From positions 2,893-66,892 of the forward strand of contig CAYPIF010000104.1 of assembly GCA_964410735.1 (NCBI GenBank): DNA of 64,000 nt, written 5' to 3'. Position numbers and translations under genes: made by a program. Below are positions 6,069-50,114 of this stretch, piece after piece. Within the stretch, counting starts at the first letter, position 1. Every line of letters begins with the position of its first letter. Under the pieces are notes generated by a model that was not told the DNA's origin, made no database searches, and worked only from the letters and a program-made list of their open reading frames with translations. This DNA is from an uncultured Thermoplasmatales archaeon. GTDB taxonomy: Archaea; Thermoplasmatota; E2; DHVEG-1.

Positions 6069-7655
6069 CTATTTCTTCCCTTTCTCATCATCCGATGATC
6101 GTTTCTTCCACAACAGAACAATGAAGAAGACAACAACAAGACCAATACAGATAACAGCCCCGATCAGAAGAACATTTGAGGAACCATTGGACTGCACATA
6201 ACCCTCATAAGGTGTCAAACTCCCACTGATAGCATCATAGACATAATCAATTCTTCCATCATTATCCGCATCAAGATAATACGAGCCATCATCAGTTTTC
6301 ACTACCGAGGAGATCAAACCACTACTCGATGAATAATAGGTATCATACACACCATCACCATCTTTATCGATAAGAAAACTACCTAAAAGAACATCACCGA
6401 TATCCTTCACATCATCCTTATCCTTAGGATCTGAACCGATCTCATCCTCAACTGTATCATCGATACCATCATTATAATCATCAGGATCCCCTACACCATC
6501 ATCATCGGTTGGCTCATCAGGTAGTCCATCATCATCAGTATCCGTAGGCTCCGCCTCGGTTTCATTTTCTGGTGGAGTTGGATCATAGGTGCCACTACCA
6601 GATGTTGAACCACCACTACTTGCCTCAGTGGTCGCAGAGGCTGTCACATTGAACATACTATAACAGGCACCAGTATCATCCCAGGACCATGCGGTAAAAC
6701 TATAGGTAGTACTAGCTGAAAGACCTGTTGTACTGGTTGATGTCCCTGTTCCATTATATAAAAATGTTCCATCGATTCGAGATGATGGAGCAGATCATCC
6801 TTGTTGATATCGAATATACGTATTTGTTGCATAACTATCTTTTGTCCAACTAAGATCAATACCACTTGAACTAGTTGCTGAAGCAGTGAAATTTGTCGGG
6901 GAACTGAGATTAAGAATTGTAATCGTTCTTTGCATTGTTTGATTTGAGTTACCATAGCTATCATTGACAAACACTTGATAGTTATATGATCCATAGTCAA
7001 GATCAGCTGTTGCATTCTTTGATTGATTTATAGTAAGATACCATCTTGTCCGGCTGAATTTTTGAAGGTTTGAAACGTATTGTTGATACACTTCTGTTGC
7101 ATTTAGAACCCTATCCCATACTCGTATTTCATCAATCGTCCCATTAAACGGATAAAGATCAGTGTTCCTAAAACTTCCACCAATCACCAAATCATCATCA
7201 TCATTATCTCCCCCGCCAAATACAACATCCATCAAGGCGTGTTGGCTGTCAAACGCCCCATTTACATAATATTTTACATCATTTGGATTGGAAGTAACAA
7301 CCACATGATACCAGTTACCTGTCTGAAAAGTAGTATTTGTAACAAGTTCTCTACCTGAAGCACCTGAACCATAACAATAGATTCGAAGTTTGTTGTAAGA
7401 ACTAGCATCATCCCACTGCACCTGATACTCATAATTCTTAATATCTGAAACAATATTGTCCCATTCACCAGCGGTTAAACCATCAGGGACTTGATCTGAA
7501 ACGGTTAAGGAAGAGCTGATCAGAGTATCATCCATATCGGTCTGTTCTATAATATGAAAGATACCTGTTACTGACATCAAAAGAAGCATACCAGCAATTC
7601 CGACCGCTTAAAAACCTATCTTAGATATAACACTTACCCTCTTTAAAAAAACCAT
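6069..7655 (-). pseudogene. LamG / FN3 / Asp-rich-repeat surface protein with C-terminal TM anchor, interrupted by two in-frame stops
   Basis: Track ORFs 6795..7589 and 6069..6656 share one frame (7589-6656=933). Only TGA 6795-6797 separates them. The 46 codons between read SAPSSRIDGTFLYNGTGTSTSTTGLSASTTYSFTAWSWDD, completing the FN3-like domain begun at LSWTKDSYATNTYIRYQQG. A second in-frame TAA (7608-7610) splits MVFLKRVSVISKIGF*AVGIAGMLLLMSVTG. LamG-type motif NGTIDEIRVWDRVL, DxDxDG repeats, and a TM followed by KKRSSDDEKGKK. Confidence 0.7.
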
Positions 7656-7839
7656 GAATATCTCTCTCTGCTACACAATCCGTAGCAAAGAATGATAGAA
7701 AAAAAACACATTTAAGATTGTCGAAAATATTAAAGTTCACAATACTTTAAGAATATCACTTTTGTTCAAGAATAACCCATTCAAAGTATAATAAATGATT
7801 CGAATGGATAATATCTTGCTAAATCCTCATTTCCTCACG

Positions 7840-8337
7840 CTATATCTTCTTTATAAGACCTAGCAAAACATTTGCTCGTGGCACCTTTTTCATATACTGT
7901 TTATATCCTTCACCGAACTTTTTGATCCCTTGTCTATCGGCATTCATGAGATCGATATAGGTCAAGGGAAACACAGGAAGGCCAAGGATGATAACGGTCC
8001 AATGCTGGAACAAGAACATCGCTGCCACTGACCACCACATCCAGGTGATATATTGAGGATGACGAACAACTGAATAGATACCAGTATCAACTAGTTTTGC
8101 GGTATGAACATAGCTTGTTCTCTTTTTGACACCACCATTCCTGCGGAATTCAAAGATAGGGAGCATCCCAAAGATAAATCCAGAGAACATATACAATCCC
8201 ACCCCAACATATGCCAAAAGAGTGTTCTGCTCAATAGATGGGAGAAAAAAGATACCAAGAGTTATCTGCAAAAGTATCAGGATAAGAACGACCATCGCTG
8301 GCATGAACTCGATAAACAGCCCATGTTTTCTTTTCAT
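7840..8337 (-). CDS. isoprenylcysteine carboxyl / phospholipid methyltransferase family membrane protein
   Basis: LVDTGIYSVVRHPQYITWMWW (RHPxY motif) with several TM helices. Confidence 0.75.
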   Translation of the reverse strand: MKRKHGLFIEFMPAMVVLILILLQITLGIFFLPSIEQNTLLAYVGVGLYMFSGFIFGMLPIFEFRRNGGVKKRTSYVHTAKLVDTGIYSVVRHPQYITWMWWSVAAMFLFQHWTVIILGLPVFPLTYIDLMNADRQGIKKFGEGYKQYMKKVPRANVLLGLIKKI

Positions 8338-8394
8338 AACCCTTCCCTCGCACGGAATCGTTAGCCTACTGAAACGTTAGGACCGATACATCGA

Positions 8395-8610
8395 TTAGTC
8401 ATGCATAAGAAGAGAATCCTTTGGCATCCTATCCATAAGAAGCGAATCATTTGACATCTTATCCCTGAGAAGAGGACTATCTGAGAGTTTCTCCCAGTGT
8501 TTACTGGAACATTCAGGACAAACAAAATATGTTTCATCCAAAAGATCCGTGTACTCCCGAGGTATCAGAAATTGGGCCCCACATTCTGAACAAATATTTA
8601 TTGTTATCAT
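8395..8610 (-). CDS. zinc-ribbon protein with 10-aa tandem-repeat tail
   Basis: MITINICSECG...FVCPECS (CxxC...CxxC). The tail reads LSDSPLLRDK/MSNDSLLMDR/MPKDSLLMHD. I chose the internal Met because the longer track ORF overlaps the NUDIX gene. Confidence 0.5.
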   Translation of the reverse strand: MITINICSECGAQFLIPREYTDLLDETYFVCPECSSKHWEKLSDSPLLRDKMSNDSLLMDRMPKDSLLMHD

Positions 8611-8707
8611 ATTAACCCACTTCCACCATATATTATTTGTAGCTCCACCTATAAGTACCTTGCTCTTAAAACAAGGTTGGGGACCACCCTTTAAAAAAAT
8701 ATGAAAG

Positions 8708-9139
8708 CTAAATATGAACATCCATTAGTTTTTTGACGATGGGGATATCGGCCTCTGCAAATTCATAGTAAGAAATCTCATCGATTTCTATCCATCTTGA
8801 GTCCTGACAGTCGATATGAGATATCTTTCCTTCTTTAAGATCTGAAAGGTATGCAAATAAGGTTATGGGTATCTGTTTCCCATCTTTTTCATAAACATGA
8901 CTGGTCTTAAGGAACAAGGAATCAATGGTGATCACGATGCCAAGTTCTTCTTGTATCTCACGGACCAAACAATCCTCATAGGTCTCATTCTCTTCGACCT
9001 TGCCACCAGGGAATTCCCATTTATTTGGTTCAAGATAACTATCCTTTTTTCTTTGTGCAATAAGTATCTTATCATCTTTGCGGATGATGGCAGCGGTGAC
9101 AATGTTCTCCTTTGAGATCATAATATGACTCCCGTACAT
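8708..9139 (-). CDS. NUDIX hydrolase (MutT-like)
   Basis: Nudix box GGKVEENETYEDCLVREIQEELGI. Confidence 0.85.
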   Translation of the reverse strand: MYGSHIMISKENIVTAAIIRKDDKILIAQRKKDSYLEPNKWEFPGGKVEENETYEDCLVREIQEELGIVITIDSLFLKTSHVYEKDGKQIPITLFAYLSDLKEGKISHIDCQDSRWIEIDEISYYEFAEADIPIVKKLMDVHI

Positions 9140-9168
9140 GGTAAAAATGTTCTATGTCGGTAATATGT

Positions 9169-10434
9169 TTACTGGTTCATTTGTGTTTGGAAAAAGCTTG
9201 ATATGGAATAAAGTTCGACCGTTGGACAGTATTCATCAATGTAAACCGCTGCATCATGTGTATCAAAATATTGCTGAGTTTGATTCTCAGGAGATGGTGG
9301 TCTAGTGATGGATGGTATTTGTTTGATGTTACCTGAGAAAGAGGCGTTGGCTAGCATCTGTCGATAGATGAGTATTGGTTTGTAACAGATACCCCATTGT
9401 AACACATTATATCCTTGTGATTCAAGATGGTTTTTAAGGAAATTCGGGGCGATGAGAACGGTCACCGTCCCATCATCAGCTACCGTTGTTTCTTCATCAC
9501 AGATCGAATCTGGTGTTGAGGTCATCCCAAGACCGCCCACAGAGAGGGACCAGTATCGTACGTCAACATCCCCTATGAAAACCTCGCCATGAAAGGTATG
9601 TTCATAGCGTGGTGGTGTAAGGGTGATGACCGCTATCTTATCATGGTAGTTTTGGGTCAAGCTTGCAACGATGTATTCATTATCTGAGCTGGGGTAGAGT
9701 CCACTATCATTTATACGATAGAAACGGATTGAATCCTTCGAAAATTCTTTAGTGACATCCCAGGTGCTAACAAGATCCGGGTTGAACATGAGCTTTTGTA
9801 TCTTAGCAGCAAGACTTACAGGGGTCAATGAAGACTCGGGGAGAACTCCTGATGATAGATCCTGTTTATATGCCTCGATCGTCGGTAGCGGCACATTTCC
9901 TTTCAGGTCCGCACCTTGGTCCGGTCGATAGAGCCGGTAGAACAACCCGATCGTCTGCATCTCCTGTGGGAGGTACAATATGTTCTCGGCTCCTTTTGGA
10001 GGGGCTATACCTTCTTTGATGAGCCATATTGTATAGTTCCGTTTCTCAACAGATCGAGATGTATCTAAAAAGAAGGGATTATCATGATGCAGGTCTGGTT
10101 GGATCTTATTATCTGTCAGTGCAGCGATATCTGTTGACGTCTCTTCGTCATAAAGGGTGAAACTGAAATATCTCGCATAGGGGTATTGTCCAGTTATCTT
10201 GAGAGAGTCATAGTCGCCGGTGTGTTGTTTGAAGGTAAAGATATCGTATCGTGAATGTTCATCAGGAAAGGATGGTGTGAATCGGAAGGACCCAGGAAAC
10301 GAGGTCCAAAGGGTTTCATCAGTATCACTAGTTTTCATTGAAAGAGCGTTAGTTGAGATACTGAGAAGTACTATCAATGTAAAAATGAGAGCAAGGGAGC
10401 GGAAACGTTGTTGACTTTGAGCATTCATGGGCAT
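9169..10434 (-). CDS. secreted hypothetical protein (421 aa)
   Basis: N-terminal signal-like LALIFTLIVLLSISTNALS. No firm family. The RYFSFTLYD and RYWSLSVGG motifs only vaguely recall DUF1214-like proteins. Confidence 0.55.
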   Translation of the reverse strand: MPMNAQSQQRFRSLALIFTLIVLLSISTNALSMKTSDTDETLWTSFPGSFRFTPSFPDEHSRYDIFTFKQHTGDYDSLKITGQYPYARYFSFTLYDEETSTDIAALTDNKIQPDLHHDNPFFLDTSRSVEKRNYTIWLIKEGIAPPKGAENILYLPQEMQTIGLFYRLYRPDQGADLKGNVPLPTIEAYKQDLSSGVLPESSLTPVSLAAKIQKLMFNPDLVSTWDVTKEFSKDSIRFYRINDSGLYPSSDNEYIVASLTQNYHDKIAVITLTPPRYEHTFHGEVFIGDVDVRYWSLSVGGLGMTSTPDSICDEETTVADDGTVTVLIAPNFLKNHLESQGYNVLQWGICYKPILIYRQMLANASFSGNIKQIPSITRPPSPENQTQQYFDTHDAAVYIDEYCPTVELYSISSFFQTQMNQ

Positions 10435-10837: not shown

Positions 10838-11238
10838 ATTCATTCACCTAGATTCCATTTATCCTTGTTCACCAGACTTGCGACAAGGAACGCTGCACCC
10901 ATTCCTGCAATTCCGATGAAACCAGGGTTATCCACTGCTATGCTCATTGTTATTCCCATCGGTAGGAATACTATCCCTAGGATGAAAAATGTCCGGTAAT
11001 TCTTTTCATCTCACATTCCGTTTTCGCTTGAACAGGAATAAAACTATGGCAAGTACCAAAGTCAAGACAAGACCTATCACAATCACTATCGGCATCAGGT
11101 CCATATGAGATAATATTTGGATTTGATATAATCAAATATTATTCATGATTTATTGAACAAATTAACATTATAGGGAAATGATATGTAAAAAATGTCAAAA
11201 TACGATGGGATAGATATCTTTCAAATAAGCATGCTATA

Positions 11239-11763: not shown

Positions 11764-11997
11764 AGATACTATTACCCGCCCATGCTGCCTCTTTATAAAA
11801 CAACACTTATCTAATATACTATATATGCCAAACTATTAAAATGTTTTTATGAAATTATAATTGAAACATTAGTAATTATTTTTAGCAATATTAATAAAAA
11901 TAATCAACATTAATATCTTAACAGATTTGTTTCTCATAACGGTTCTCTAAAAATAATATCAATAATAAAAAATCGTTGAATACACAACACAAGAACA

Positions 11998-12144
11998 AAT
12001 ACTTTCAATGAACCAGATCATCATTTAATAAGGATGATCGACCGATACTATGCCAATAAGACGACTCATCTGGGGGAATTGCCAGCACTGGGTGCAATCC
12101 CATCCACCATCCCTTCCTTCCGCTGGCTCTTCTGCCATGTTTTA
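11998..12144 (+). ncRNA. copy 1 of a 147-nt repeated intergenic module (candidate small RNA; strand uncertain)
   Basis: Aligns by hand with 21182-21328 (75/99 identical in the 5' part). Conserved blocks: AATACTTTCAAT, the AT-rich octamer TTTAATAA (12024-12031), GGGGGAAnTGCCAGC, a GGGTGCA(A)TCCC hairpin, the GCCAGC (12081-12086) / GCTGGC (12122-12127) stem, a CU-rich loop, and a terminal T-run. Confidence 0.45.
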
Positions 12145-12182
12145 TACTAACAACTCATATGATGAAATCAGTATTATCAATT

Positions 12183-16649: not shown

Positions 16650-17766
16650 TTAGTGATATGGTTCTGTTGCTGGAGCGGTATCTTTCCCCCAAGTTAGCGT
16701 CCCCTGATAGATACGTTTTGGGACAATGCCGATGAATACTGCTATTTCTGCAGGGATTGGATAGGGCGATGTTGTTCCCCGATAGTTCCTATGAAAAAGG
16801 GTTTTTCGTCCGGATAAGATGTTCCAGCCATCTGAAAGACCGTTCACGGTCAGATACATATACGCTTGTTGTTCATTTTGAAAGATATTGTTATATTGGA
16901 TAATGGTAGATGCTGTTGTTATCTTTCCTGTGAAAAGGGGATCCACAAAGCAACTGATGCCCGTATGCAGGTTCTGCAGGATCATATTGTTTTGTATGAT
17001 GATAGGGCGATACAATGCTGGTGAATAAAGGATGATGCCATTAGTATTCTCAAGTAATTCGTTCTTTTCGATGATGGCTGTTTCTCCAGTTGTGACGAAA
17101 AGCCCAAGCCCTACCTGATTATGCATGAAGATGTCACTACATATGTGATGTTTTTATCCAGTCTACAAGAAAGATGCCGTTTTCATTGTTTTGGATTGTG
17201 TTGTTCGATATGGTTAGATGGCTTGATACTTGTTCTGTTGACATAGTTACATGGATGGAGTAGAATTCGATGTCGTGTATCTTATTTTGATCGATGTGTA
17301 TGTTGGATGAGCCTTTTATCTCGATTCCAATATACTGGTTGTCGATGGCTGTTTCGTAGATATGTATACTATCACGGTTGGCAATATCCATTCCGATATA
17401 TCCTTTTGTGATCGTCATCTGTGTGATGTTGACGTCATTTGAATGGATGGATATGATCACTGTGTTGCCATCACCTGGAAGAAGGGTCGTATCCTTTTCT
17501 TGGCCCGTTAGCGAAAGTGGTTTGTTTATCTCTATAGGTCCAGTGTACAATCCATTTAAAATGATTATATGGTCATATGGTGCTGCGATATCGATGGCAT
17601 CTTGGATATTTTGAAAGAGATGCTGTAAACTACCATCCCAGGGTCCTTCGGTGTTGCCATCATCAACATAATATGTGGTCTTGATGTATTTTGTTGGAAG
17701 AACAGATGGATTTGTTGTTGGAACAATAAGAAGAAGACAGGTGATGATAAAAGTGCTCAGATCATA
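16650..17766 (-). pseudogene. secreted parallel beta-helix (NosD/PbH1-like) protein, frameshifted and lacking an ATG
   Basis: The continuous frame reads LSTFIITCLLLIVPTT...YYVDDGNTEGPWDGSLQHLFQNIQDAIDIAAPYDHIIILNGLYTGPIEINKPLSLTGQ, then beta-helix repeats. It begins directly after a TGA (17767-17769) with no ATG or GTG. The frame changes between about 17137 and 17153, where track ORFs 17137..17550 and 16650..17126 join. Confidence 0.6.
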
Positions 17767-17932
17767 TCACCTATGAGTTATTATCTTGAGAGGTTGTTAA
17801 TAAAGCCTTACTTGTTTATCCTATGTGAAAGTGATAGAAACAAGGCTAACATATGGATGATGGCAAGATCTCTTGTTTAGAGATGCTCATTCCATTCTGA
17901 ATGATTCAACCATTTCGCTTTCTGAAAGTATC

Positions 17933-18487
17933 TTAGGTATTCGCTCGATGTTTTGAACCTTGGACGAAAAAGGTGTAAGAATATGATTGCTGTTTTCTGT
18001 TCATTTCAATGTTCACGGTTTTATGTTTCTTTACACCTGAGGGGGAAAGGAGTTCGTATTTCTCCATTTCTTTGTTCAAGGTGCGGTGAAGTTTCTTTTG
18101 ATAGGAACCAATCCCTCTTCGTTCTAATATTTTATCAATGAAGATGACTGACCATAAGGAGATATAAATCAAGAATCCAATCTCGAATTTTCCTACACCC
18201 ATTACTGCTCATAGGATGGCAAATACCCATATACTTGCAGCTGCGGTGAAACCAAAGATATGATCCGTAGTTTCTATCAATGCACCGGATCCACGAAATC
18301 CAATACCAGTGACGATTGCACTGAACAAGGGAAGGGGAGTATCCGGGTTGAGAAGTATGGCGGTAATGGAAAGACCGCAGGAACCTATTGAGACGAATAT
18401 GAAGGTACCAACGCCTATTGGTTTGTGAGATCGTTATCTTTCAATCCCAAAGATAAATGCTAGGATGAAGACGATAAGGAATCTCAT
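17933..18487 (-). pseudogene. mgtC: MgtC/SapB-family membrane protein with two in-frame stops
   Basis: Hand translation in a single frame gives MRFLIVFILAFIFGIER*RSHKPIGVGTFIFVSIG...SAIVTGIGFRGSGALIE...FGFTAAASIWVFAIL*AVMGVGKFE... The stops are TAA 18434-18436 and TGA 18209-18211. The GxER..K.xG and GIGF.G.G motifs are characteristic of MgtC. Confidence 0.7.
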
Positions 18488-18587
18488 GATTATACTAGTT
18501 AGTTCCACCGTCCCCAAACATCAGATCTAGCACAATTTATTAATAAAACATAGTAAAGAACATCATACTCAACAAGGAAGCTAGGAT

Positions 18588-21083: not shown

Positions 21084-21181
21084 AACATTCTATCTTTTTT
21101 GCGATTAGTACAAGCATAGTTTATCCCTTTTAAAAATCTAGACGAAAGATAAAGAGTAATAGCTAAGATAAATCAAAGATG

Positions 21182-21328
21182 AATACTTTCAATCAACCCA
21201 ATTATCATTTATTAAGGATGAACGACAGATATACGATTAACAGGACGATAGATACGGGGGAACTGCCAGCAAAGGGTGCATCCCACTCTTTCCTCTTCCT
21301 CAAGCTGGCATTTCTGCCACATTTTTTA
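21182..21328 (+). ncRNA. copy 2 of the 147-nt repeated intergenic module (candidate small RNA; strand uncertain)
   Basis: Same conserved blocks as 11998-12144: the octamer TTTATTAA (21208-21215), the GCCAGC (21265-21270) / GCTGGC (21304-21309) stem, a GGGTGCATCCC hairpin, a CU-rich loop, and a T6 run. Lies 95 nt upstream of glpK. Confidence 0.45.
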
Positions 21329-26929: not shown

Positions 26930-28759
26930 TTACGAGAAGATACATTCCAGCTTTTCAATGATATGTTCAGGTAGAGATCTTAGGATTTCCAATTGGAGAA
27001 ACGATGAATGTGGGAGGGAGGTCTTCATCGTGATACTCACATCGATGTAATCATCGGGGTCTTCCATATTTGTTATCCTAATAGTTCCATTGAACGCTTG
27101 GTTCTTCTCCCGCGGTACCTTTATGGTCACATCAACTATCTCAGGTCCACCTTCCGGTTTAACATCCTGCCCGGACATAGTGGAAAAACTCCAATCGCCC
27201 CAGTCAGGATATGAGGCGATCATCCAATCGAGACAAGATAACGATTCTCCACTGTTCTCGACCAAAAGCATTGCATCGATCTTTGAACCTGGTCGTAAAT
27301 CAGTGAATTCACCTTGAAGATTTGCTGAGATGGCAGGCACTGTAGGCGTCCATGAATTTGCTAACCCTTTTATACAAAAGTTTGCGGTCCCAATCCATTC
27401 AAGTTCATCGAAGATATAATAATAGAGATCCTTCCACTGACCATTCTTCAGATAATAGCTCTCGCCAGTGTCTGCTGTTGATTCCACCTCGTCACTAAGA
27501 GTTGAACAGGAAATGAGCAGAACAGGGACAACAGAGGTCCGATCAATGGGCTGCCCACCAGAACTAAGGGAAAGATACACATAGAAATCATCACCTTCTC
27601 GTAACCCAACCGGGTGTGTAAGATCAATCGTATGAAACCCACGGTAATCAAGAATACCAGAAGTTTCAGATAATTGGTATCTCAAAACACCATCTTCAAA
27701 TCGATCATAGATGATGATATCAAATGAAACATCATCAGTAGCTGTGTAGAAACTCACGGATTCCAAGAGTTCATCATTAGTTGATACAAAGGCGTTACAT
27801 GCTTCAGATACATCTTGCAGTGTATCTCGCCAACCATGGTAATCATGATAATAAATTGTGCTATATCTCAATGGTTCCACATCCTGGAAGGATACTGCAC
27901 CCATCTCGGGATGGTGCCCGCAGTGTTTATCATAATATGATATCCAAAAATATCCCTCATTCCCCCAACCTTCACCCCAACTGTTCTTCACAAGCCATGC
28001 ACCTGGGCCTTGTGGAGCCTGAGTTTCCTTCGTATCATCCCATCCAATAAGGGCAACAGCATGATTTGGTTCAGAGGGGTTATCTGGTGGCTGATAATGG
28101 ATAAAGTTCTTTATGAAACTACCACTATAACAAAGACAGGTCCCAACAACCCCTTCGGTCATGATAGCTTGTTTCACAAGATCGATATTTTCAAGGTCAT
28201 CTCCAACAGTGTACCATTCAATGTCCCGTGGGTAATAGAGATGATATGATGGATCATATCTCTCAGGTGGCGTGTCAAATGATTGTCCGTCCTGATCGCG
28301 AACGGCTCCTTCGCCTCGAGATAGATACGCTGACGCGACAAGATAATCACCTCCTTGGTGGACGGTAAGACCCCCACCGGTTGTTGGGCTGGTATCATCA
28401 TTATTGTACTGATTGAAACCATTCCACCAATCAAGATGATACTCAGCAAGATTTGGTTCATCCTGTTCTCCAACGTCAGACCATACATTGGTCATAAGCA
28501 GGTTGCCTTCCATTGATGCCATGACCCCATGGGTCCAGCAGGTTCCACCGGTCTGGCTTTTGACAGATGTAACATAATTTTGACCGTTGACATCACGAAG
28601 ATCAAATGATTCCGGTATATCATTGCTATATGTACACATCGATAGAGATTGGTAATCCATAGCCATGATAGCCGTGCTTGGAAAGGTTAAGACTATACAA
28701 GATATCAGTATGATAACAAAAAATGCGATTTTATCTTTCAATATCATATTTGACCCCAT
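26930..28759 (-). CDS. secreted papain-family (C1) cysteine peptidase with C-terminal extension
   Basis: N-terminal TM/signal. Catalytic contexts [10 protein letters not shown] (Cys), [11 protein letters not shown] (His) and [19 protein letters not shown]. Confidence 0.8.
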
Positions 28760-31099: not shown

Positions 31100-32197
31100 T
31101 CATATGAATCTCATGTGTTCGATAATCTGTGTTTGAGTGTGTAGTTCATCGGTAATTCCATGATGGGATATTGTACCATTTACTGTGACAAAATACCTGT
31201 AGTAATGTAATGTGAGTATATCTGAGGGGCTTCGGTGAATTGATTGTGATTTCATTGTGACATTAATTTCTGTAAACCCCTGTTTAGTCTGGATGGTGGA
31301 CTTTTGTGGTATGAATCTTCTACCAATGAACTTGTAATCGCTTGAGGTAAAGGCGATGTTTTCTGGCGAAATCTGAACAAACCCCGTCTCATTCGCACTC
31401 AATACCCCCAGTTTTTCAACAAATGTTGGTTCACTTAATCCTGTTTCAATAATATTTGCCCAAATGAAACAAAAGTGGTTTGTTGTGATTTTACCCTAGT
31501 ACCATCCCCACGATCTCATTGGTGTCGAAAGGCTGAAGTTCCAGTTATGGTCATGATATCCTCGACCGTTCACTTCAATAGTTTCAGCATTATAATATAG
31601 TTATCCTTGCATTCTTGCTTTTGGTAGTGCAACGGTCCATCCTTCATGACTCGTGATATATTTCCATCCTACAGTTGTGCCTGTAAATACCAGATCTACT
31701 CCCACATCATCTATCAAATGGTTTATTGAATATGTCATTTGATGGTTTTGTTGCCAGTCTGTAACATTGAGCTTCATTACACTGGCATCTTTTATTTGTA
31801 AGCTAGGTATCTCTTGTGAGGTTTCAAAGTTATTTGGTAGAATCATTTCAGATGCATCTGCTATGATTTCATTGTCTTTATACAGAGTGATTGATGTTGT
31901 GAGATAAGTTATCTCTTGGACGGGGATTATTCTGAATCCTATGTGTGCACCGTATCCATTGATAAATATGCTATCGAAATACCACTATTCCATTGATGGA
32001 TGTATCGTTGGTCCATGATAAGCATCATCTCTCAGGGGTATATTATCAATTGAATCTATTCCGTATTCTATTGATGCGGCGAAATTATTTTCTGTAATGT
32101 CCTTTGTCATTCTTTGAAATGTATCGTTAGAAAAGGGTAATGTGACAACCATAAGGAAAATAAAAAGAACGAATAAGGTAGTATAAGTGTTCTACAT
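31100..32197 (-). pseudogene. AttH/CrtC (hydroxyneurosporene synthase)-like lipocalin-fold secreted protein with four in-frame stops
   Basis: One 366-codon frame with no frameshift. In-frame stops: TAG 32192-32194 (codon 2), TAG 31985-31987, TAA 31601-31603 and TAG 31496-31498; all offsets from the ATG at 32197 are multiples of 3. Motifs are HPSME*WYFDS (family consensus EWWY) and GRGYHDHNWNFS...WGWY*GKI. The signal-like h-region is TLFVLFIFLMVVTLPFS. Confidence 0.65.
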
Positions 32198-34204: not shown

Positions 34205-34358
34205 AGATATTAAAAAAGATATATTTTTATGTATCTTTTAATATATGGATAGATGCAAAAGATAGGTAAAAAGAACAATGAATCAAACAATAGAATCAAC
34301 CGTGTATAGCAGCATCTTGATATTATCCAAATCAATATTTTGATTGGTGAACACATCA

Positions 34359-35330
34359 ATGTCTACATTACGAGAAATAAGGGACAGAGGATATCTTCCC
34401 CCAAGAACAATGAGAAAACTTCTTTTCGTTGGTTTCCTAACAATGGGGAAGATTGTCATCACAAATCTTAGTGACATAAAAAAACTAAGCAAGATCAAGC
34501 CAGCAGAGACAGCATATAAACGACCAAAAAGACGATTCGACCTACAACCTTTTAAGGATGATATGAAGGTTTGCCACTCAGATGAAAAATACCTGCGTCC
34601 AACCTTATACTGTGACCATACAAGACCAGAGATCATTGCACTAGCCCATGAACTCGGCGCCTATAAACTGCCAGATAGAGAGTATGCAATTGCAGCCTTT
34701 GAATTCGCCAAAAGAAAATTAACCCTAGAAATGGTACCATTGGATGGTGTTGAGAAGACCCTAGAACGCGGTACAGGAACCTGTATTCACAAGATCTCTG
34801 TGTTCATCGCCCTCTGCAGGGCCGCGGGTTTAAAAGCACGGTACAAACTGTATTCTTTAACCATGATAGATGCCTGGTCCGATGCATTAATGGTCGACCC
34901 AATGATAAAAAAATACTCAGATGCAATGGGTTATTTCCTCATTCATGGAGAAGGAGAAGTATTCATTGACGGAAAATGGGAGGTCTGCGATGTCGGACCA
35001 ACACCCGAACGCCAAGCCGCAAGCAGTATCCCAATCACTAGATTTGGCGAGGACTCCATCGGCATCTGGTTCTCAGCAGTACCAGGAACCATTATGAGAC
35101 TTGAATCAATTCCATATGGCCTCAATCTCATGATGAGGATCGTTAAAAAAATGGCACCCATCACTGTAGATAAAGTGAATGCAAGTGTTCTTTCACAAAT
35201 TAACCATGGTAGAGAGATCCTTCAGCAAAAGGGAGAAGACGAATATGATGCTGAGATCCGGAGGACATACAAACCAAAGTTCCCCGAACCAGTTTTAAAG
35301 ACAAGAAAAGAGATAATATTCAAACGGTGA
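34359..35330 (+). CDS. transglutaminase-like cysteine peptidase superfamily protein
   Basis: Cys-His-Asp core GTGTCIHKISVFIALCRAAGLKARY ... LIHGEGEVFIDGKWEVCD. ATG at 34359 chosen over the TTG at 34344. Confidence 0.7.
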   Translation: MSTLREIRDRGYLPPRTMRKLLFVGFLTMGKIVITNLSDIKKLSKIKPAETAYKRPKRRFDLQPFKDDMKVCHSDEKYLRPTLYCDHTRPEIIALAHELGAYKLPDREYAIAAFEFAKRKLTLEMVPLDGVEKTLERGTGTCIHKISVFIALCRAAGLKARYKLYSLTMIDAWSDALMVDPMIKKYSDAMGYFLIHGEGEVFIDGKWEVCDVGPTPERQAASSIPITRFGEDSIGIWFSAVPGTIMRLESIPYGLNLMMRIVKKMAPITVDKVNASVLSQINHGREILQQKGEDEYDAEIRRTYKPKFPEPVLKTRKEIIFKR

Positions 35331-36784
35331 AAAAAAGAATGCCAACAGATATGAATATTTCATTTCCAGAGCCACCAGATGTGATAAAGCAGAAACCCTC
35401 GATAAAAAAATATCTTCGATATCTTTTGTTCTTTGGCCCCGGTGCTATCGTCGCATCGGTCACGATAGGCCAAGGGCAACTCATCCTGGGGCCTCAGATG
35501 GGAGCATGGGCAGGTTTCACTTTGCTCTGGTTAATAACAGTCAGCATTGGATCATTTATCATTGCCTATTACAGTTGTAGATTTACCATGATATCCGGCA
35601 TCGGGCTGATGGACCTTTTCGCCATAAAAACCAAGTTCAGCTGGTTGAACTGGATATTTATTTTCATTATGATCATATTCATACCCATCTTCACCGGAAC
35701 AATCATCACCTCACTTGGCCAAGCCCTTGCATGGATATTCGGAATCGGGCATTATCTGATATGGGGCATCTCGTTCTGTGTGTTCGCGGGGCTCCTCGTT
35801 GTCCTTGGCAGATACCGTGTCCTTGAGTATACACAGGCGTTCTTTGTCGCGGTTCTTGCCATCGGCGCAATAATCTCCGTTCTATCATTGAACCCAAATT
35901 GGCTTGATATTCTCCCTCATTATTTCCTCATTAGTGCACCTGCGCAATTTCCTGATTGGGTCGTTACTAATTACCCATCAGTTACCAACACATCAATCCC
36001 ATTATACATGCTAGGATATCTAGGAACATTGACCATCACCATCATCACAATTGTTGGATATCTTGGATGGATCAAGGTGAAGAAATGGGGCATATTCGAA
36101 CATCAACATGATCCCCTTGCTTTTTCACAACAATGCTTCAATTCATTTCAAAAGGAGGGAAAGATAACATATTTACCAACAAGTGCTGAGGAACAAAAAA
36201 AAGCGCGTCAATTGCTCATACCAATGAAGGTAGATCTCTCAATCGCATTCATCGTTATAGCAATCGTATCATCAGCATATATGATAGCCGGTACGTTACT
36301 ACTTGGACCAAACAAATTACTGCCTCAGGATGCAAAGCTTATCCAGGATCAGGTCATTATCTTTCAACATATGGCCAACTGGTTAAAACCCTTGTTCCAG
36401 ATAGGTGTGTTCTTTGCGTTATTCGGAACGGTCTATGCAGGGTTTGAAGCTGCATCAAGAATGCTCTTTGAAACAGGGAGAAATCTTATAAAACCGATTC
36501 GAACAATACCCTACAAGAAATTCACATTGGCCATCTTTATCTATCTATTGGCAACAGGTGTTCCCCTCTCCATCATAATGTCCATGGGTGTTTCCGTCCT
36601 GTTAATGCTAAGTCTCACCCTTATGTTCACTGGTGTTATTGGTGTCATCGCCTATGGGGCAGGTTCTTTGATATTGACACAGAAGGTTCTTCCAGATACA
36701 TATAAACTTGGCCCCGCGGGTATTTTGCTTGCCATCTTTGGCCTTGCCTGTCTTGCCATACCACTTGTCTTTTTTTTCATCTAG
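35327..36784 (+). CDS. polytopic transporter, distantly NRAMP-like
   Basis: About 11-12 hydrophobic helices. FGPGAIVASVTIGQGQLILGPQMGAWAGFTLLW resembles the NRAMP TM1 region, but the canonical DPGN is not conserved. GTGA overlap with the upstream gene. Confidence 0.5.
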   Translation: MKKRMPTDMNISFPEPPDVIKQKPSIKKYLRYLLFFGPGAIVASVTIGQGQLILGPQMGAWAGFTLLWLITVSIGSFIIAYYSCRFTMISGIGLMDLFAIKTKFSWLNWIFIFIMIIFIPIFTGTIITSLGQALAWIFGIGHYLIWGISFCVFAGLLVVLGRYRVLEYTQAFFVAVLAIGAIISVLSLNPNWLDILPHYFLISAPAQFPDWVVTNYPSVTNTSIPLYMLGYLGTLTITIITIVGYLGWIKVKKWGIFEHQHDPLAFSQQCFNSFQKEGKITYLPTSAEEQKKARQLLIPMKVDLSIAFIVIAIVSSAYMIAGTLLLGPNKLLPQDAKLIQDQVIIFQHMANWLKPLFQIGVFFALFGTVYAGFEAASRMLFETGRNLIKPIRTIPYKKFTLAIFIYLLATGVPLSIIMSMGVSVLLMLSLTLMFTGVIGVIAYGAGSLILTQKVLPDTYKLGPAGILLAIFGLACLAIPLVFFFI

Positions 36785-36814: not shown

Positions 36815-37333
36815 TCACATTTTTTCCTTTTTTATCAATGGTTCCAGGACCTCAACGGTCCATTTGGCAACGTTTCCCGAGACCGAGAGGCATTTATCAT
36901 CATGAGCACCAGCGTTCTCAAACAATTCATACTCCTCAGCATCAGAGAGGCGATAGCTCCGGCCGAATAAAAAGGATTGTACACTCATACACAGTACGCT
37001 TTGGTATTCCTGATGGAACCTGTCATAGAGCTTTTTAGCATATGGGAACACACGTCGTTTCCATTCTCCATCAGACAACTCCTGATATGCCCATCCAATG
37101 ACAGCACCTATCACAAGGATTCCCCCTGAGAGAGCCCCGCAGGTTCCTTCGCTTGATAACGCAACTCCCCCAGCCAAACCATCAACAGCTTGTATCGTTT
37201 TAGGATCACCAACTACAAGGACTTCGTATATTGCCGAGAGAACTGCTTGAGGACAACTTCCCCTCCCTGCTTCATAGTTATATGCTAGATCATAGGCTTG
37301 TTGCCCAAGGGATCTTTGTTCTGATATCATCAA
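36815..37333 (-). CDS. C_GCAxxG_C_C family protein
   Basis: Cys pattern GSCPQAV ... GTCGALSGG ... LCMSV ... DKCLSV. Confidence 0.75.
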   Translation of the reverse strand: MMISEQRSLGQQAYDLAYNYEAGRGSCPQAVLSAIYEVLVVGDPKTIQAVDGLAGGVALSSEGTCGALSGGILVIGAVIGWAYQELSDGEWKRRVFPYAKKLYDRFHQEYQSVLCMSVQSFLFGRSYRLSDAEEYELFENAGAHDDKCLSVSGNVAKWTVEVLEPLIKKEKM

Positions 37334-43756: not shown

Positions 43757-43770
43757 GAAGTGTAATAGTT

Positions 43771-44529: not shown

Positions 44530-44531
44530 GT

Positions 44532-45377: not shown

Positions 45378-45379
45378 TT

Positions 45380-45828: not shown

Positions 45829-45906
45829 CGTGTGTTCGCGAACCATTTCGACCATTCTATCTTTTTCATACTATTCCAGTTTGTAATAGATTAAAAAAAG
45901 GAAAGA

Positions 45907-45927
45907 AAGGGCATCTTTTTTGCCCTT
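45907..45927. terminator. hairpin with T-run between convergent genes
   Basis: AAGGGCA-tcttttt-TGCCCTT, a 7-bp stem with a T-rich loop. Lies between the rpoP stop (45828) and the minus-strand small ORF stop (45942). Confidence 0.4.
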
Positions 45928-45941
45928 ACTACGACCAAATT

Positions 45942-46184
45942 TTATGGTAGTGATTCAAAGACCTTTCGTGCGATGTCCAATTCTTGTTGATAAGAGTCTA
46001 GTGACGGGTAGTTAACTTCTTGTCTCCGTCCAAATACCATCTGCCCACCTATTTTTTGTTTGAAAGATACTGTACGGAATGGTTAGATTGTTTCTTCAAA
46101 GAAGATCTTTGAAAGCGATGCTACGAATTTCTCGCTAAAGTCCATCTCTTCACGTTCCCTAGAGAAATTGATTTTCCCTTCCAT
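45942..46184 (-). pseudogene. 80-codon small ORF with one in-frame TAA (function unknown)
   Basis: GGAGAGAGG precedes the ATG at 46184. The frame reads MEGKINFSREREEMDFSEKFVASLSKIFFEETI*PFRTVSFKQKIGGQMVFGRRQEVNYPSLDSYQQELDIARKVFESLP. The TAA is at 46083-46085. Confidence 0.3.
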
Positions 46185-46473
46185 ACCTCTCTCCTCATAA
46201 GAAAAAAGATTACTGTGTATTTAAAGATTACTAAAAAAATCATAATTCATATTTCATAAATTTTTGTTTTGAAAACCATTTATGAAAATAAGTTAATCAA
46301 TTATAATTAATTATCTTAAAAATTTTAGATATATCTACTCTTTTTTAGAAATAATTGGAATTGTAAATTCGAAAGTATGCCGATTGTATTGTGGTCGATC
46401 TGTAATGTGAATTCAATAGACTACACCAACAATAATAATTTATAGATTAAAATCTATATTTTAATTTGATTAT

Positions 46474-49400
46474 ATGAAAACAAAATCATTGACGATCATC
46501 TCATTGGTCATTCTTCTTGTTTCAAACCCGGTCATCTTTGCCATCAGCTCATCAGATGATCAACCCTTAGACACAGGCCCATTATTTATGCCATTGAACA
46601 AAGATGAAGCCATTAATATACTCCATTTCAAAGAAGGGAACACCAGCTATACATCCCCTCTTTGCACATTGAACCAAACCTTTACGATCTCCCAAGAAGA
46701 GATACAGTTCATTCGGGGAAAGGACAAGATACAAATCGCTCTTGCAAATGCATCATTGCTCAATCAACCAGGACTTCCCCTTATCCCAATGAAAACACTA
46801 TCATTTACCCTGCCAAAAGACATAGTGGTCCATGATGTTGAAGTGAATGTGATCTCAGCACAAAAAAGTATACAATCAATCTCTTTTCAAAATGCACCCT
46901 ATCCACAGTTCTATAGTATCAATGAAACACCATTACATCAGCATACTGATGAGATCATAGAACAGTCCCTTGCTCTTGCACACGAGCAGAAAGTATACCC
47001 AAGCGCAACCCACTCATACACCATTGGCAAGAACAGCACCGCTACACAGGTCATCGTTCATCTTTTTCCCATCTGCTATCAATTTAACACAAAACAAACG
47101 TATATCATTGACAAAGGAACAATAACAATACGCTATGAACCAGAACAACAAGCATCCACACAAGCAACCTCGGATTCAGCTGAGAATATCATCATCACCC
47201 CGCCTAAATTTTACTTTCAAGCAAAGAAATTACAACAATTCCATACTGAACAAGGAGTTGAAACAGAAGTAGTCACTACCACATGGATACAATCAAACTA
47301 TGAACCCTCTGAATATCCACCAGTGATAGGCTACAGCGATTTCACATCCAAAGAGCTCATGAGAAAGTATGATGATGAACTGGCATGTAAAATCATATCA
47401 TATCTTCAAACACAATCCACCAACCCCAACCTACGATTTATTACAATCCTTGGAAACGCAATCCATGTCCCACCAAGTTACTATTTTGGTTACTCCTATT
47501 ACCCTGTTCCCACGGATTTCTATTATAGTTCGCCAGACCTGGACCTCATCCCGAACTATCGTATCGGAAGGATACCTGTTGACACCACTTTAGAGGCAAT
47601 AAGGACGGTCAATAAGATCATCAACTGGAACCCAACGGGGACTCAGATGGATAACGTCGCAATCGCAGGTGGCATACCTTTCAACTCACCATTTTTCATC
47701 GGGGAGCTGATCACCATTGACTCTGTGAACCAAGGGTTGCTTGATGGATTGAACGTGGATAAATACTATCGGACCAATGAACGATTTGAGAACACAGATA
47801 TTCTCTCTGCGTTACAAAACGAGTATGGTCTTCTATTTATGATCTGCCATGGGAACGCAAACGTAATCGTTGCCGAAGATGGAAGGATATCAGCAAGGGA
47901 CCTGTTGAACATGCCACGGAATGATAATGCACCAATATTCAGCTGCATCGCCTGCAGCAGCGGCTCCTATGATACTCATATCATCAAACAAGGGCATTCA
48001 TATGATAAGACCTCCTTTGGGGAAGGTATCGTTATCTCAAAAGGAGGAGGCATCGCATATATCGGTGGATCTCGGACCAATGACGGATATCCTCTTCTCG
48101 CCTTGAACAATGGTCGTGTTGAGGTCACAAAGGAGACCTATATGGCAGGTCTATTAACCTATGTGAACCAGGCATATGGCAACAACGTTGATCATCTTGG
48201 GGATCTCACCTTCTCTGCGTATGAAACATACCTTGAGAATAATGATCTTACTGATTTCTGGAACCAGTATCATTATTTTGATTTCATCCTGTTAGGTGAC
48301 CCTGCGTTACAACTCCCAGACCGATCGTTTCAACAACCCTCCTATGAACACCCAATTTCAAATGCAAAGGACGCTGTACGTACCATGTCATATGTATCAT
48401 CATTTTATGAGTATAATGGAACCATATGTCTCCAAGCAATTGACGAAGAGATAACCTATGAAAGTCATAGTGATTCACCGTTCATCAACCTTAAACAGAT
48501 TGAAACAGGGAACAATGACAACATGGCCATCGATCTCTCGACCCATCCAACCCAGAACAATAAAGCACTCATTGATATCACCTCAGATGCTGGTGGATTG
48601 TATCTACTCCGATTCGAAACAAAGGATGGGAAAGAGGACTGGTCATATTATCAAACCGCACGCCCAGTTGATGATGACTTTGATTCAACCACTAAAGGCT
48701 TTGGTTCAACCCGATGGGACAGTATACAAGAAGCGATAGATAACGCTCATGAGTATGATCCCATCTTTGTCTTTGATGGGATATATAACGAATCGATCAG
48801 TATCGATAAACCCTGCAGTCTTGAAGGAGAGACCAGGTCCTCCACCATTATTGATGGCGATGGAAATGATGATGTGCTCTATATCACATCTGAGGGAGTA
48901 ATGGTCAAAGGTTTCACCATCCAACATTGCGGGAAGAACCCCTGGAATGCAGGTGTTAGCATTCAACCAAAACGATCATTGAACCAAGCATCCATCATAA
49001 TCAAAGATAACAACATTATCAACAACAAGAACTGTGGTATCTATATCGAAACTGGTCTTCAACTATTGAGCCCGAGCATCTCGATCCTTCAAAACGCAAT
49101 CATGTATAACAATTATGGTGTGTATATCCAACAGGGACCAGAGAGTAAGGAATTTGTTTCTAATACCATCCAAGGGAACAATTATGGGTTCTACTTGGTC
49201 GGATCAAGTCATGATCTCATCGCAGCGAACACGATTGAGAATAACTATGTTGGTCTGTTCTTACAAGATGTGAAAAAAAGTGAGATCGATTCAAACAATT
49301 TCATTGAGAACACCCAGCATTGCCAGTTCACAGAAACACGGTCAACGACATTCAGTTATAATTTCTGGGACAACTGGTTCGGTCTTCGATTCAAGATTAA

Positions 49401-49512
49401 TCTTCCAATCCCTAAACTGATCAATGGGTTCCATGATAGTTCTGTACCCCTCAGAGATCAATTCAAACTTGACCTGCATCCGGTGAAAGAACCATATATC
49501 ATAAATGCATAG
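46474..49512 (+). CDS. secreted gingipain-like (C25, clan CD) cysteine peptidase fused to parallel beta-helix repeats
   Basis: Signal peptide. His/Cys dyad contexts LLFMICHGNAN and IFSCIACSSGSYD. The C-terminal region carries repeated NNxI/GIYI beta-helix units (IIKDNNIINNKNCGIYIE, NAIMYNNYGVYIQ, IQGNNYGFYLV, IENNYVGLFLQ). Confidence 0.75.
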   Translation: MKTKSLTIISLVILLVSNPVIFAISSSDDQPLDTGPLFMPLNKDEAINILHFKEGNTSYTSPLCTLNQTFTISQEEIQFIRGKDKIQIALANASLLNQPGLPLIPMKTLSFTLPKDIVVHDVEVNVISAQKSIQSISFQNAPYPQFYSINETPLHQHTDEIIEQSLALAHEQKVYPSATHSYTIGKNSTATQVIVHLFPICYQFNTKQTYIIDKGTITIRYEPEQQASTQATSDSAENIIITPPKFYFQAKKLQQFHTEQGVETEVVTTTWIQSNYEPSEYPPVIGYSDFTSKELMRKYDDELACKIISYLQTQSTNPNLRFITILGNAIHVPPSYYFGYSYYPVPTDFYYSSPDLDLIPNYRIGRIPVDTTLEAIRTVNKIINWNPTGTQMDNVAIAGGIPFNSPFFIGELITIDSVNQGLLDGLNVDKYYRTNERFENTDILSALQNEYGLLFMICHGNANVIVAEDGRISARDLLNMPRNDNAPIFSCIACSSGSYDTHIIKQGHSYDKTSFGEGIVISKGGGIAYIGGSRTNDGYPLLALNNGRVEVTKETYMAGLLTYVNQAYGNNVDHLGDLTFSAYETYLENNDLTDFWNQYHYFDFILLGDPALQLPDRSFQQPSYEHPISNAKDAVRTMSYVSSFYEYNGTICLQAIDEEITYESHSDSPFINLKQIETGNNDNMAIDLSTHPTQNNKALIDITSDAGGLYLLRFETKDGKEDWSYYQTARPVDDDFDSTTKGFGSTRWDSIQEAIDNAHEYDPIFVFDGIYNESISIDKPCSLEGETRSSTIIDGDGNDDVLYITSEGVMVKGFTIQHCGKNPWNAGVSIQPKRSLNQASIIIKDNNIINNKNCGIYIETGLQLLSPSISILQNAIMYNNYGVYIQQGPESKEFVSNTIQGNNYGFYLVGSSHDLIAANTIENNYVGLFLQDVKKSEIDSNNFIENTQHCQFTETRSTTFSYNFWDNWFGLRFKINLPIPKLINGFHDSSVPLRDQFKLDLHPVKEPYIINA

Positions 49513-49657
49513 CACTCACATTTTGACATATCTTTCATTGAACTTTCTGATTCGTCAATGTTAACCTGTATCGTTAAATCCTATCTCTATTGATTAATCA
49601 CAGAAGAAATCAGCAGAAACAATACATTTTTAAATCATGTTCAATTCGATTGATACC

Positions 49658-50114
49658 ATGATAGGGAAAAAAACGGTTTTTGTTCTGATCGTTTCTTGTT
49701 TGTTTTCTCCCTTTGGTCTCTGAAACACCAACAGAATGGCATAATATGCCTGCATCCAGAAAGGAAATTGGCGATATCTTTCAATTACGTTTCGAAATAA
49801 AATCAGATGTGACAACCAATTATACGATCACCATTAATCCAGGAGATGATTTCGAATCGGTCAATGGGAACAATAGTATGACAAAGGAGATACCTGTTGA
49901 TGCTACTCGAACATTTATCTTTGATATGAAACTCACTAACAATATTGAAGATGGAAAACACCCTATTCCATTCATAGCCTACAAGAACGGCACCCAATTT
50001 AAAACAGGGAACATCTATGTAAGAGCAGGAACCCAGACCCCTGGATTCGAGATTTCCATACGTCTCGTATCTGTTGCCATTATACTTTTCATTACGAAAA
50101 GACGAATGAGATAA
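49658..50114 (+). pseudogene. PGF-CTERM-type surface protein; signal peptide and mature domain in different frames
   Basis: The ATG at 49658 gives MIGKKTVFVLIVSCLFSPFGL, then a stop at 49721. The mature domain (track ORF 49713..50114, TTG start) is offset by +1 (49713-49658=55). The C-terminus TQTPGFEISIRLVSVAIILFITKRRMR matches the PGF + TM + basic-tail sorting signal. Confidence 0.5.

Follow-up and report, generated by a model that had tools for sequence, protein, structure and literature searches.

Unitary pseudogenes of prokaryotes, annotated by NCBI PGAP as 'internal stop' or 'frameshifted', are non-essential genes that carry disabling stop codons and small indels, have lost purifying selection, and have intact orthologues in a close relative. 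Flexible genomic islands with genes for cell-surface proteins differ from one strain to another within closely related groups. In-frame stops within homologous reading frames are also found in recoding systems, and TAG is read as pyrrolysine in some Thermoplasmata (Methanomassiliicoccales). In the Mycobacterium tuberculosis complex, 66.5% of the pseudogenes contain frameshifts and 16% contain internal stops, which the authors attributed to the high GC content (PMC9676053). Poor assemblies are, furthermore, known for inflated numbers of pseudogenes with internal stops (Cooley and Wright 2024, PMC11017572). In metagenome-derived genomes, in-frame stops are often put down to assembly errors or taken too readily for a change of the genetic code.

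Here, we analyzed a stretch of 64,000 nucleotides (the window) of an uncultured Thermoplasmatota archaeon that is present in metagenomes including Mahoney Lake sediment and whose lineage probably belongs to Marine Benthic Group D. About six of 60 genes within the window are broken, a comparatively high number for a free-living archaeon, and all six encode membrane or secreted proteins. We assign a probability of about 0.8 to the interpretation that these are genuine unitary pseudogenes, which arose by ordinary lineage-specific decay after constraint had been lost. The features of described unitary pseudogenes recur at this locus. Internal stops make up a larger share than in the GC-rich M. tuberculosis complex; at the approximately 40% GC of this genome, stops arise more easily. 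As in flexible islands, the differences from the closest relative are concentrated in surface proteins; unlike in flexible islands, much of the turnover is decay by point mutations in place and not cassette replacement.

Interrupted genes and their orthologues in a sister lineage

A sister lineage with about 94% nucleotide identity to the window lineage was used for comparison of the orthologous loci, a check that had been proposed together with the first-pass annotation. For five of the six broken genes, intact orthologues were found at the sister loci L089, L122, L126, and L128, all of them syntenic, and none of the genes compared was broken in the sister. The sixth gene, LamG/FN3, lacks such a syntenic orthologue, as its cassette is absent from the sister. 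A search of genome contigs with the MoxR protein did not retrieve a close genome (best match 81% at the amino acid level, an uncultured Thermoplasmatales MAG), and the loci found with this query did not contain orthologues of the pseudogenes.

The gene for an AttH/CrtC-like predicted secreted hydrolase, putatively of the PF07143 family (31100..32197, minus strand), is interrupted by four nonsense codons and contains no indel. Comparison with uninterrupted homologues of 365 aa revealed the changes Q2 CAG>TAG (32192), W71 TGG>TAG (31985), Y199 TAC>TAA (31601), and W234 TGG>TAG (31496). The sister orthologue (P0361, locus L128) is an intact gene for 365 aa, with 94.3% nucleotide identity and zero indels. 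Family motifs, e.g. EWWYFD and GYHDHNWNF, are conserved, and PF07143 is precomputed on several full-length homologues (P0002, P0003, P0022, and P0025). The window translation itself had no Pfam match at E values up to 0.01, and when the stops were replaced by the ancestral residues, the closest match in the metagenome contigs reached only 63%.

The gene for an MgtC-family membrane protein (17887..18523, minus strand; Pfam match 3.4e-18) contains the two nonsense codons Q30 CAA>TAA (18434-18436) and G105 GGA>TGA (18209-18211). Near 17956, moreover, 5 bp are deleted, so that the final approximately 22 codons are out of frame. The sister orthologue (P0041, L089) is syntenic and encodes an intact protein of 213 aa. 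The frame of the NosD/beta-helix protein gene (16650..17667, minus strand) is shifted by a 1-bp insertion at 17161; in addition, the gene has the nonsense codon Q171 CAA>TAA (17154-17156) and lacks 3 bp near 16777, a deletion that preserves the frame. Its intact sister orthologue (L089, 10524-11543) encodes 339 aa.

The gene at 49658..50114 on the plus strand encodes a small surface protein that has a signal peptide and, at its C-terminus, a putative PGF-type anchor. A 1-bp insertion (C) at 49695 uncouples the signal peptide from the mature region, and the sister gene (L122, 18027-18482) is intact and encodes 151 aa. At the C-terminus, TPGFE, a hydrophobic helix, and KRRMR are visible; a comparison with NCBIfam did not yield a match to a PGF-CTERM model, and a Heimdall-CTERM match stayed below threshold (18.5 bits versus a cutoff of 24). 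A further broken gene had escaped the first-pass annotation. It encodes an 88-aa membrane protein with three helices (10840..11104, minus strand), and a 2-bp deletion near 11009 divides it into a reading frame of 32 codons and an out-of-frame remainder of 55 codons. The break was seen both by DNA alignment and by two-frame tblastn, and the sister gene (L126, 7214-7480), also for 88 aa, is intact.

The sixth gene encodes a surface protein with LamG and FN3 domains and a C-terminal membrane anchor (6069..7655, minus strand; Pfam Laminin_G_3, 1.6e-20). Its FN3 domain is interrupted by a TGA at 6795-6797, after which 242 codons remain open. The homologue P0181, with 67% identity over 144 aa spanning the TGA, has a Ser at this position. 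The gene is split identically in five assemblies, and this single stop suggests that it, too, is decaying. A TAA at 7608-7610 in the presumed signal anchor is a candidate lesion at a site for which there is no orthologue to compare. A representative search with the LamG protein retrieved exclusively giant multi-domain proteins and no one-to-one orthologue; the matches of the full-length query were dominated by its acidic low-complexity tail.

Nine premature stops had been claimed for the window. All nine triplets are present on the minus strand (6795 TGA, 7608 TAA, 18209 TGA, 18434 TAA, 31496 TAG, 31601 TAA, 31985 TAG, 32192 TAG, and 46083 TAA), and seven of them are premature in comparison with intact homologues (four in AttH, two in MgtC, one in LamG/FN3), whereas the triplet at 46083 is a natural stop. 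The damage was underestimated in other respects: instead of only two frameshifts there are four, because the MgtC and 88-aa gene deletions have to be added, and the beta-helix gene has, besides its frameshift, a premature stop and a loss of 3 bp. When the genes were mapped codon by codon against the orthologues, seven nonsense codons, four indels that shift the frame, and one deletion that preserves it were found; the LamG stop was mapped separately, against P0181. The corrected tally is thus eight nonsense codons (nine if 7608 is counted) versus four frameshifts and one in-frame deletion. The interrupted frames are much more open than expected by chance, because shuffling produced many more stops (LamG 37, MgtC 11, AttH 26) than are present (2, 2, and 4, respectively). 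The claim that the housekeeping genes are intact holds.

Fixation of the lesions, loss of constraint, and rival explanations

We retrieved 13 near-identical contigs with 99.95-100% identity to the window, originating from eight assemblies (one Logan, seven JGI). The same lesions are shared by as many as nine near-identical metagenome contigs, part of which could be traced to Mahoney Lake, with 3-5 contigs per lesion; some of the assemblies may share reads or a site. Judged from the assembled contigs, the lesions appear to be fixed in a near-clonal population, in which minor intact alleles may still occur. The first-pass annotation had considered consensus calling over a polymorphic population, and the stops might generally be errors or chimeric calls. 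The origin of the window from metagenome data and the known inflation of internal-stop counts in poor assemblies would fit such an artefact. However, the lesions are reproduced in several near-identical contigs and are therefore not assembly errors: they recur exactly across assemblers (Logan and JGI) and several sample records, in contrast to spurious pseudogenes, and the 13 positions at which the contigs differ from one another all lie outside the lesions. In addition, the stops are accompanied by extra amino acid changes on the window branch, which sequencing errors would not be expected to produce. An artefact is thus hardly credible, and of all explanations we regard it as the least probable.

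The substitution patterns revealed that loss of constraint on the window branch is gene-specific for MgtC and AttH. The dN/dS values of these two genes were 0.37-0.42 (MgtC 0.42), while nearly all neighbors were in the range of 0.01-0.22 (0.03-0.22 for the neighbors of MgtC). For MgtC, 17 amino acid changes were unique to the window and none was unique to the sister (p=1.5e-5). For AttH, the ratio of polarized non-synonymous or stop changes to synonymous changes was 24:8 on the window branch and 5:12 on the sister branch (Fisher p=0.005). As a control, the changes in 14 intact genes were distributed 56:43 between the window and sister branches (p=0.23). The dN/dS value of the beta-helix gene (0.27) was only mildly raised, and that of the PGF protein gene was 0.16; both values are unpolarized, as no outgroup was available.

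These patterns bear on whether the genes are still functional via read-through, suppression, or recoding, with pyrrolysine inserted at TAG or selenocysteine at TGA; tolerated read-through had been put forward earlier. Long open frames do continue past the stops, the AttH gene combines four stops with no indel, and in the more distant relative L130 a LuxE gene has one in-frame stop and is otherwise 88% identical. Yet the premature stops include TAA, TAG, and TGA alike, and each of these codons also serves as a normal terminator (54 intact genes end with 29 TAA, 13 TGA, and 12 TAG). The residues aligned with one and the same stop differ, i.e., Q, W, and W for TAG, Y, Q, and Q for TAA, and G and S for TGA. 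On the window branch, the evolution of the MgtC and AttH genes is unconstrained, and the MgtC and beta-helix genes are also frameshifted. A search of the window for recoding signals detected neither a SECIS nor another Rfam match at the gathering threshold, nor a tRNA. We therefore consider continued function very improbable.

Point-mutational decay of dispensable envelope or accessory genes, as proposed earlier, is supported: the codons predicted from family consensus as ancestral, namely TGG in EWWY as well as CAA and GGA in MgtC, are precisely the ones present in the uninterrupted genes of the sister. Of the eight verified changes that created a stop, seven affected a G or C, and five of these are GC>AT transitions, where the ancestral LamG codon was deduced only from the Ser in the homologue. 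The nonsense share of random substitutions is 3.5-6.5%, which predicts about 4-10 nonsense codons for the approximately 110-160 substitutions on the window branch, and seven were observed. The intergenic ratio of indels to substitutions was 14:149. The excess of substitutions over indels (8-9 nonsense codons versus four frameshifts) had been called unusual, but after correction it is not clearly so, and the number of nonsense codons fits this expectation. Two observations still speak against plain decay, namely the 8:4 preponderance of nonsense codons over frameshifts and the four stops without an indel in AttH. For AttH, the probability of finding no indel is 0.03 if the intergenic indel rate applies and 0.17-0.36 if the rate is lower, and the probability of at least four stops is 0.07-0.21.

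Under ordinary decay, the six genes, for the AttH-like hydrolase, MgtC, the beta-helix protein, the PGF-anchored protein, the 88-aa membrane protein, and LamG/FN3, would have lost selective constraint after the split from the sister lineage, and ordinary spontaneous mutations would have piled up in them afterwards. In these genes of about 40% GC, approximately 5% of random substitutions create a stop codon and small indels are several times to more than 10-fold rarer than substitutions, so that a few percent of neutral divergence gives several nonsense codons and a few frameshifts per kb, in agreement with the observed lesions. By a rough estimate, the neutral divergence since inactivation is about 3% each for at least MgtC, the beta-helix gene, and AttH. 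The most likely cause is that these envelope genes became dispensable, i.e., relaxed selection.

Alternatively, inactivation itself may have been favored, e.g. by shedding virus receptors or costly surface proteins, with later lesions being neutral. The exclusive damage to membrane or secreted proteins, the intactness of the genes compared in the sister, and the presence/absence variation of further surface genes (the PKD/NosD giant, the LamG cassette, and the C25 peptidase with the PGF gene) are in line with adaptive loss. On the other hand, nothing distinguishes selection for loss from simple dispensability, the numbers of lesions are as in neutral decay, and the intact genes did not exhibit a lineage-wide shift. 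Adaptive loss is thus unlikely, although it is the strongest competitor of ordinary decay. More improbable still is a version in which the Mahoney Lake lineage sheds envelope genes in a selected, lineage-specific episode and the mutation spectrum or tolerance favors nonsense over frameshift; if true, this population would provide a natural case of directional remodeling of the cell surface that is still under way in an uncultured sediment archaeon. With ordinary decay as the preferred interpretation, the value of the analysis would lie mainly in a clean negative, namely that the in-frame stops of this window belong to real, fixed, and ordinary pseudogenes.

Gain and loss of surface genes

Envelope genes in this clade may also turn over by gain and loss of whole genes. 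The LamG/FN3 gene resides in a cassette of 1.83 kb (6023..7854) in the window lineage, in place of which the sister has 55 bp; the right boundary of the cassette is located within the final codons of the ICMT gene. Conversely, a PKD/NosD protein of 5590 aa occurs in the sister only, and a search of the window with its first 1253 aa did not uncover a remnant. L129 and L130 lack the genes for the C25 peptidase and the PGF protein. Mobile-element genes were not seen at the junctions. A probable C-terminal remnant of an alpha/beta-hydrolase gene is located at 2696..2923 on the minus strand (weak NCBIfam matches, E about 0.003-0.005), in a region that does not align with the sister beyond 3059; a sister gene of 501 aa was considered as its counterpart and turned out to be unrelated. 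In this archaeal clade, surface genes thus appear to turn over quickly, by decay, gain, and loss, while housekeeping genes are constrained.

A conserved pair of small genes

In addition to the extra lesions in MgtC and the beta-helix gene and the broken 88-aa gene, the annotation had to be corrected for a small ORF at 45942-46184 that had been regarded as interrupted. It consists of two intact, conserved cistrons on the minus strand: ORF-A encodes 33 aa (46083..46184), with the TAA at 46083-46085 as its natural stop, and ORF-B encodes 32 aa (45942..46040) and has its own Shine-Dalgarno-like motif, GGTGG. The frame offset of ORF-B relative to ORF-A varies among three lineages (0 in the window, 1 in the sister, and 2 in L129). 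A chance origin of the ORF, as suggested by 425 of 2000 shuffles, was ruled out by these comparative data. A structured non-coding RNA was also considered for the highly conserved stretch 45938-46187 and rejected, as its folding was no better than that of shuffled sequences (z +0.83 and -0.69 for the two strands); an Rfam search of the stretch yielded noise only. A TATA-like box, CTTTAAAT, a Shine-Dalgarno-like motif, GAGGAGAGAGG, and the ATG of ORF-A are common to four lineages, and the ORF-A peptide is kept, with synonymous changes. A terminator-like hairpin follows ORF-B at 45907-45927.

Damaged envelope genes and their orthologues

Stop codons were present on the minus strand at all nine triplets (9 of 9) that the first-pass annotation had read as premature stops. 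The LamG/FN3, MgtC and AttH frames contained 2, 2 and 4 stops, respectively, versus means of 37, 11 and 26 in shuffled sequence. Pfam recognized Laminin_G_3 at 6069-7655 (1.6e-20) and MgtC at 17933-18487 (3.4e-18). It gave no direct match to the AttH frame at 31100-32197, yet this frame had strong matches to 40 full-length homologues (about 365 aa), some with PF07143; relative to these, the stops correspond to Q2, W71 (EWWYFD), residue 199 and W234 (WYWGK).

A syntenic sister lineage from Logan assemblies SRR28370465 and SRR28370467 (loci L089, L122 and L126-L128) was compared with window 3059-52356. The nucleotide identity was 92.5-98%, and about 93.6-94.2% in long blocks. Five broken genes were intact in the sister, namely those for AttH (365 aa), MgtC (213 aa), a beta-helix protein (339 aa), a PGF-type protein (151 aa) and an 88-aa membrane protein, and the window lesions were mapped codon by codon. 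The attH gene contained CAG>TAG, TGG>TAG, TAC>TAA and TGG>TAG without any indel in 1098 bp. For mgtC, CAA>TAA, GGA>TGA and a 5-bp deletion near 17956 were found, and for the beta-helix gene (16650-17667) a 1-bp insertion at 17161, CAA>TAA at 17154-17156 and a 3-bp deletion near 16777. The PGF-type gene (49658-50114) was disrupted by a 1-bp insertion (C) at 49695, and the 88-aa gene (10840-11104) by a 2-bp deletion near 11009. Among the genes compared, none was intact in the window and broken in the sister.

The sixth broken gene, LamG/FN3, lies on a 1.83-kb cassette (6023-7854) that is absent from the sister. Its TGA at 6795 aligned to Ser in a homologue with 67% identity over the stretch spanning that stop; its TAA at 7608 was not polarisable and stands outside the eight verified nonsense codons. 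The cassette boundary (7831-7855) falls in the last codons of an ICMT-family gene (7840-8337), and therefore the C-terminal residues of that protein differ between the two lineages.

The corrected tally comprises 8 verified nonsense codons (9 including 7608), 4 frameshifts and 1 in-frame deletion. Only two frameshifts had been noted before; one lesion of mgtC (the 5-bp deletion), two of the beta-helix gene (the nonsense codon and the 3-bp deletion) and the 88-aa gene as a whole had been overlooked. In line with the earlier remark that every affected gene is envelope, secreted or accessory, each of the six broken genes codes for a membrane or secreted protein.

Origin of the lesions

Internal-stop pseudogenes are often a sign of poor assemblies (Cooley and Wright 2024, PMC11017572), and an assembly or consensus artefact had been proposed. 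However, one Logan and seven JGI assemblies contained 13 near-identical contigs that spanned window 1-52355 with 99.95-100% identity, and the same lesions were found in all contigs covering them. The 13 variable sites (among them 2975, an indel; 3972; 7114; 7569; 17222; 20731; five in 28616-28706; 37598) included no lesion site. This invariance answers the poor-assembly concern, and at the level of assembled contigs the lesions are not an assembly artefact. The five clustered SNPs, within 91 bp at the 5’ end of a C1-peptidase gene, occurred in one 12.7-kb contig alone (L082, JGI 3300077563), the remainder of which had just one further difference from the window.

Tolerated read-through had also been suggested. 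All three stop codons are normal terminators of intact window genes (TAA 29, TGA 13, TAG 12), TAG aligned with both W and Q in homologues, three damaged genes carried both premature stops and frameshifts or a frameshift alone, and an Rfam search of the window matched no SECIS-like or other RNA family. Within the limits of the window, recoding is thus excluded.

The excess of substitutions over indels, previously called unusual, shrank to 8 (or 9) to 4. In intact orthologues, 3.5-6.5% of random substitutions would create a stop. The four pseudogenes with a codon-level comparison differ from the sister at about 234 sites, which translates into roughly 110-160 changes on the window branch; 4-10 nonsense codons were predicted and 7 were observed, within the neutral prediction. 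Intergenic DNA had 14 indels per 149 substitutions. Binomial tests of 8 nonsense codons in 11 lesions, the tally before the 88-aa frameshift, gave p values between 0.015 and 0.30, according to the indel rate assumed for coding DNA; at 8 of 12, with this fourth frameshift included, the excess is weaker still. AttH by itself (4 stops, no indel) was marginal, and this gene was picked after the fact. Seven of the 8 verified stop-creating changes were at G or C and five were GC>AT transitions, in agreement with the common mutational bias. In a GC-rich comparison the skew was opposite, which its authors attributed to GC content (PMC9676053).

Outgroup polarisation of MgtC yielded 17 window-unique versus 0 sister-unique amino-acid changes (p=1.5e-5). 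For AttH, the ratio of non-synonymous or stop to synonymous changes was 24:8 on the window branch versus 5:12 on the sister branch (Fisher p=0.005). The dN/dS values were 0.42 for MgtC and 0.37 for AttH, and 0.01-0.22 for nearly all intact neighbours. As a control, 14 intact genes polarised with L130, a more distant relative, had 56 window-unique versus 43 sister-unique changes (p=0.23), and thus there was no acceleration across the window lineage. Loss of constraint is confined to the broken genes, as shown for MgtC and AttH.

The intact sister orthologues, the lost constraint and the neutral-like lesion counts uphold the proposed point-mutational decay, which is best explained by relaxed selection on envelope genes that the window lineage can dispense with; loss of these genes under selection for loss is a less favoured possibility. 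Gene decay of this kind is well known, and the window is therefore an ordinary, well-documented case.

On the window branch, the C_GCAxxG_C_C gene (36815-37333) appears to be relaxed or to evolve fast although its frame is intact; it has 11 window-unique versus 2 sister-unique amino-acid changes, a dN/dS of 0.35 and a 3-bp deletion. At 34344-36784, the transglutaminase-like and Nramp genes had a dS to the sister of 0.49-0.56 versus 0.12-0.22 in neighbours, which suggests a recombined or exchanged tract.

A small-protein operon at 45907-46230

The ninth stop (TAA at 46083) had been taken for a lesion in one small ORF; the region 45942-46184 instead contains two minus-strand cistrons. ORF-A (46184..46083, 33 aa) is preceded by a conserved TATA-like box and the Shine-Dalgarno-like GAGGAGAGAGG; ORF-B (46040..45942, 32 aa) has a GGTGG of its own, and a terminator-like hairpin lies downstream of it. 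Conservation extends to L129, another more distant relative, for both peptides and to L130 for ORF-A. The frame offset of ORF-B to ORF-A is 0 in the window, 1 in the sister and 2 in L129, and thus the TAA is the natural stop of ORF-A. No family match was found for the operon, which adjoins the exosome/L37ae/RpoP cluster. Over 250 bp of it (45938-46187), only 2 positions are different in the sister versus a mean of 15, a conservation above that of the neighbours’ synonymous sites.

Surface-gene turnover and source of the window

The larger differences between the lineages likewise fall on surface proteins. A 5590-aa PKD/NosD/beta-helix protein (about 17.4 kb) is encoded only in the sister, between genes for 495 aa and 174 aa (L089 from 16542 onward, L127 1-6146). 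Its window counterpart is 148 bp at 11850-11998, and no remnant of its first 1253 aa was found in the window. A 1012-aa C25-peptidase/beta-helix gene and the PGF-type gene (window 46474-50114) form an insertion common to window and sister. It is absent from L129 (5014-5957) and L130 (14062-14931), where Pcc1 directly follows the small-ORF region.

An element of roughly 150 nt (11998-12146 and 21180-21326) occurs twice per genome in window and sister, with about 75% mutual identity, and one copy lies exactly at the junction of the sister’s giant gene. It has conserved blocks and a putative long conserved hairpin (GGCAGAA..GCCAGC / GCTGGC..TTC..CC), and did not match Rfam.

The window has a GC content of about 40%, 78% of it consists of intact genes, and no tRNA gene was found. 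Its gene set is archaeal and includes proteasome alpha, SBDS, Rrp4, Rrp41, Rrp42, L37ae, RpoP, ProRS, PurA, GlpK, TIM, transaldolase, L18e and C1 and C25 peptidases. Exact-protein look-ups traced its proteins to metagenomes, including the Mahoney Lake sediment run SRR2989655 (Hamilton et al. 2016, PMC4846661); JGI 3300001533 contig MLSed_10000174 and five newer JGI samples likewise carry window sequence. [quoted passage not shown] Among reference genomes, an uncultured Thermoplasmatales MAG is the nearest (81% amino-acid identity), and one cluster member is named Candidatus Thermoplasmatota. We infer that the window lineage belongs to MBG-D.

In L130 (1071-2432, JGI 3300005077), a LuxE-like acyl-protein synthetase contains one in-frame stop (ANIYTG*LPK, E in the window) but apart from this shares 88% identity along its whole length; the stop reflects a nonsense mutation of very recent date or else an error in that assembly. 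Within an apparent 610-bp gap of the window, an intact 49-aa zinc-ribbon ORF (56616-56765, minus strand) resembles ribosomal protein L40e on visual inspection.
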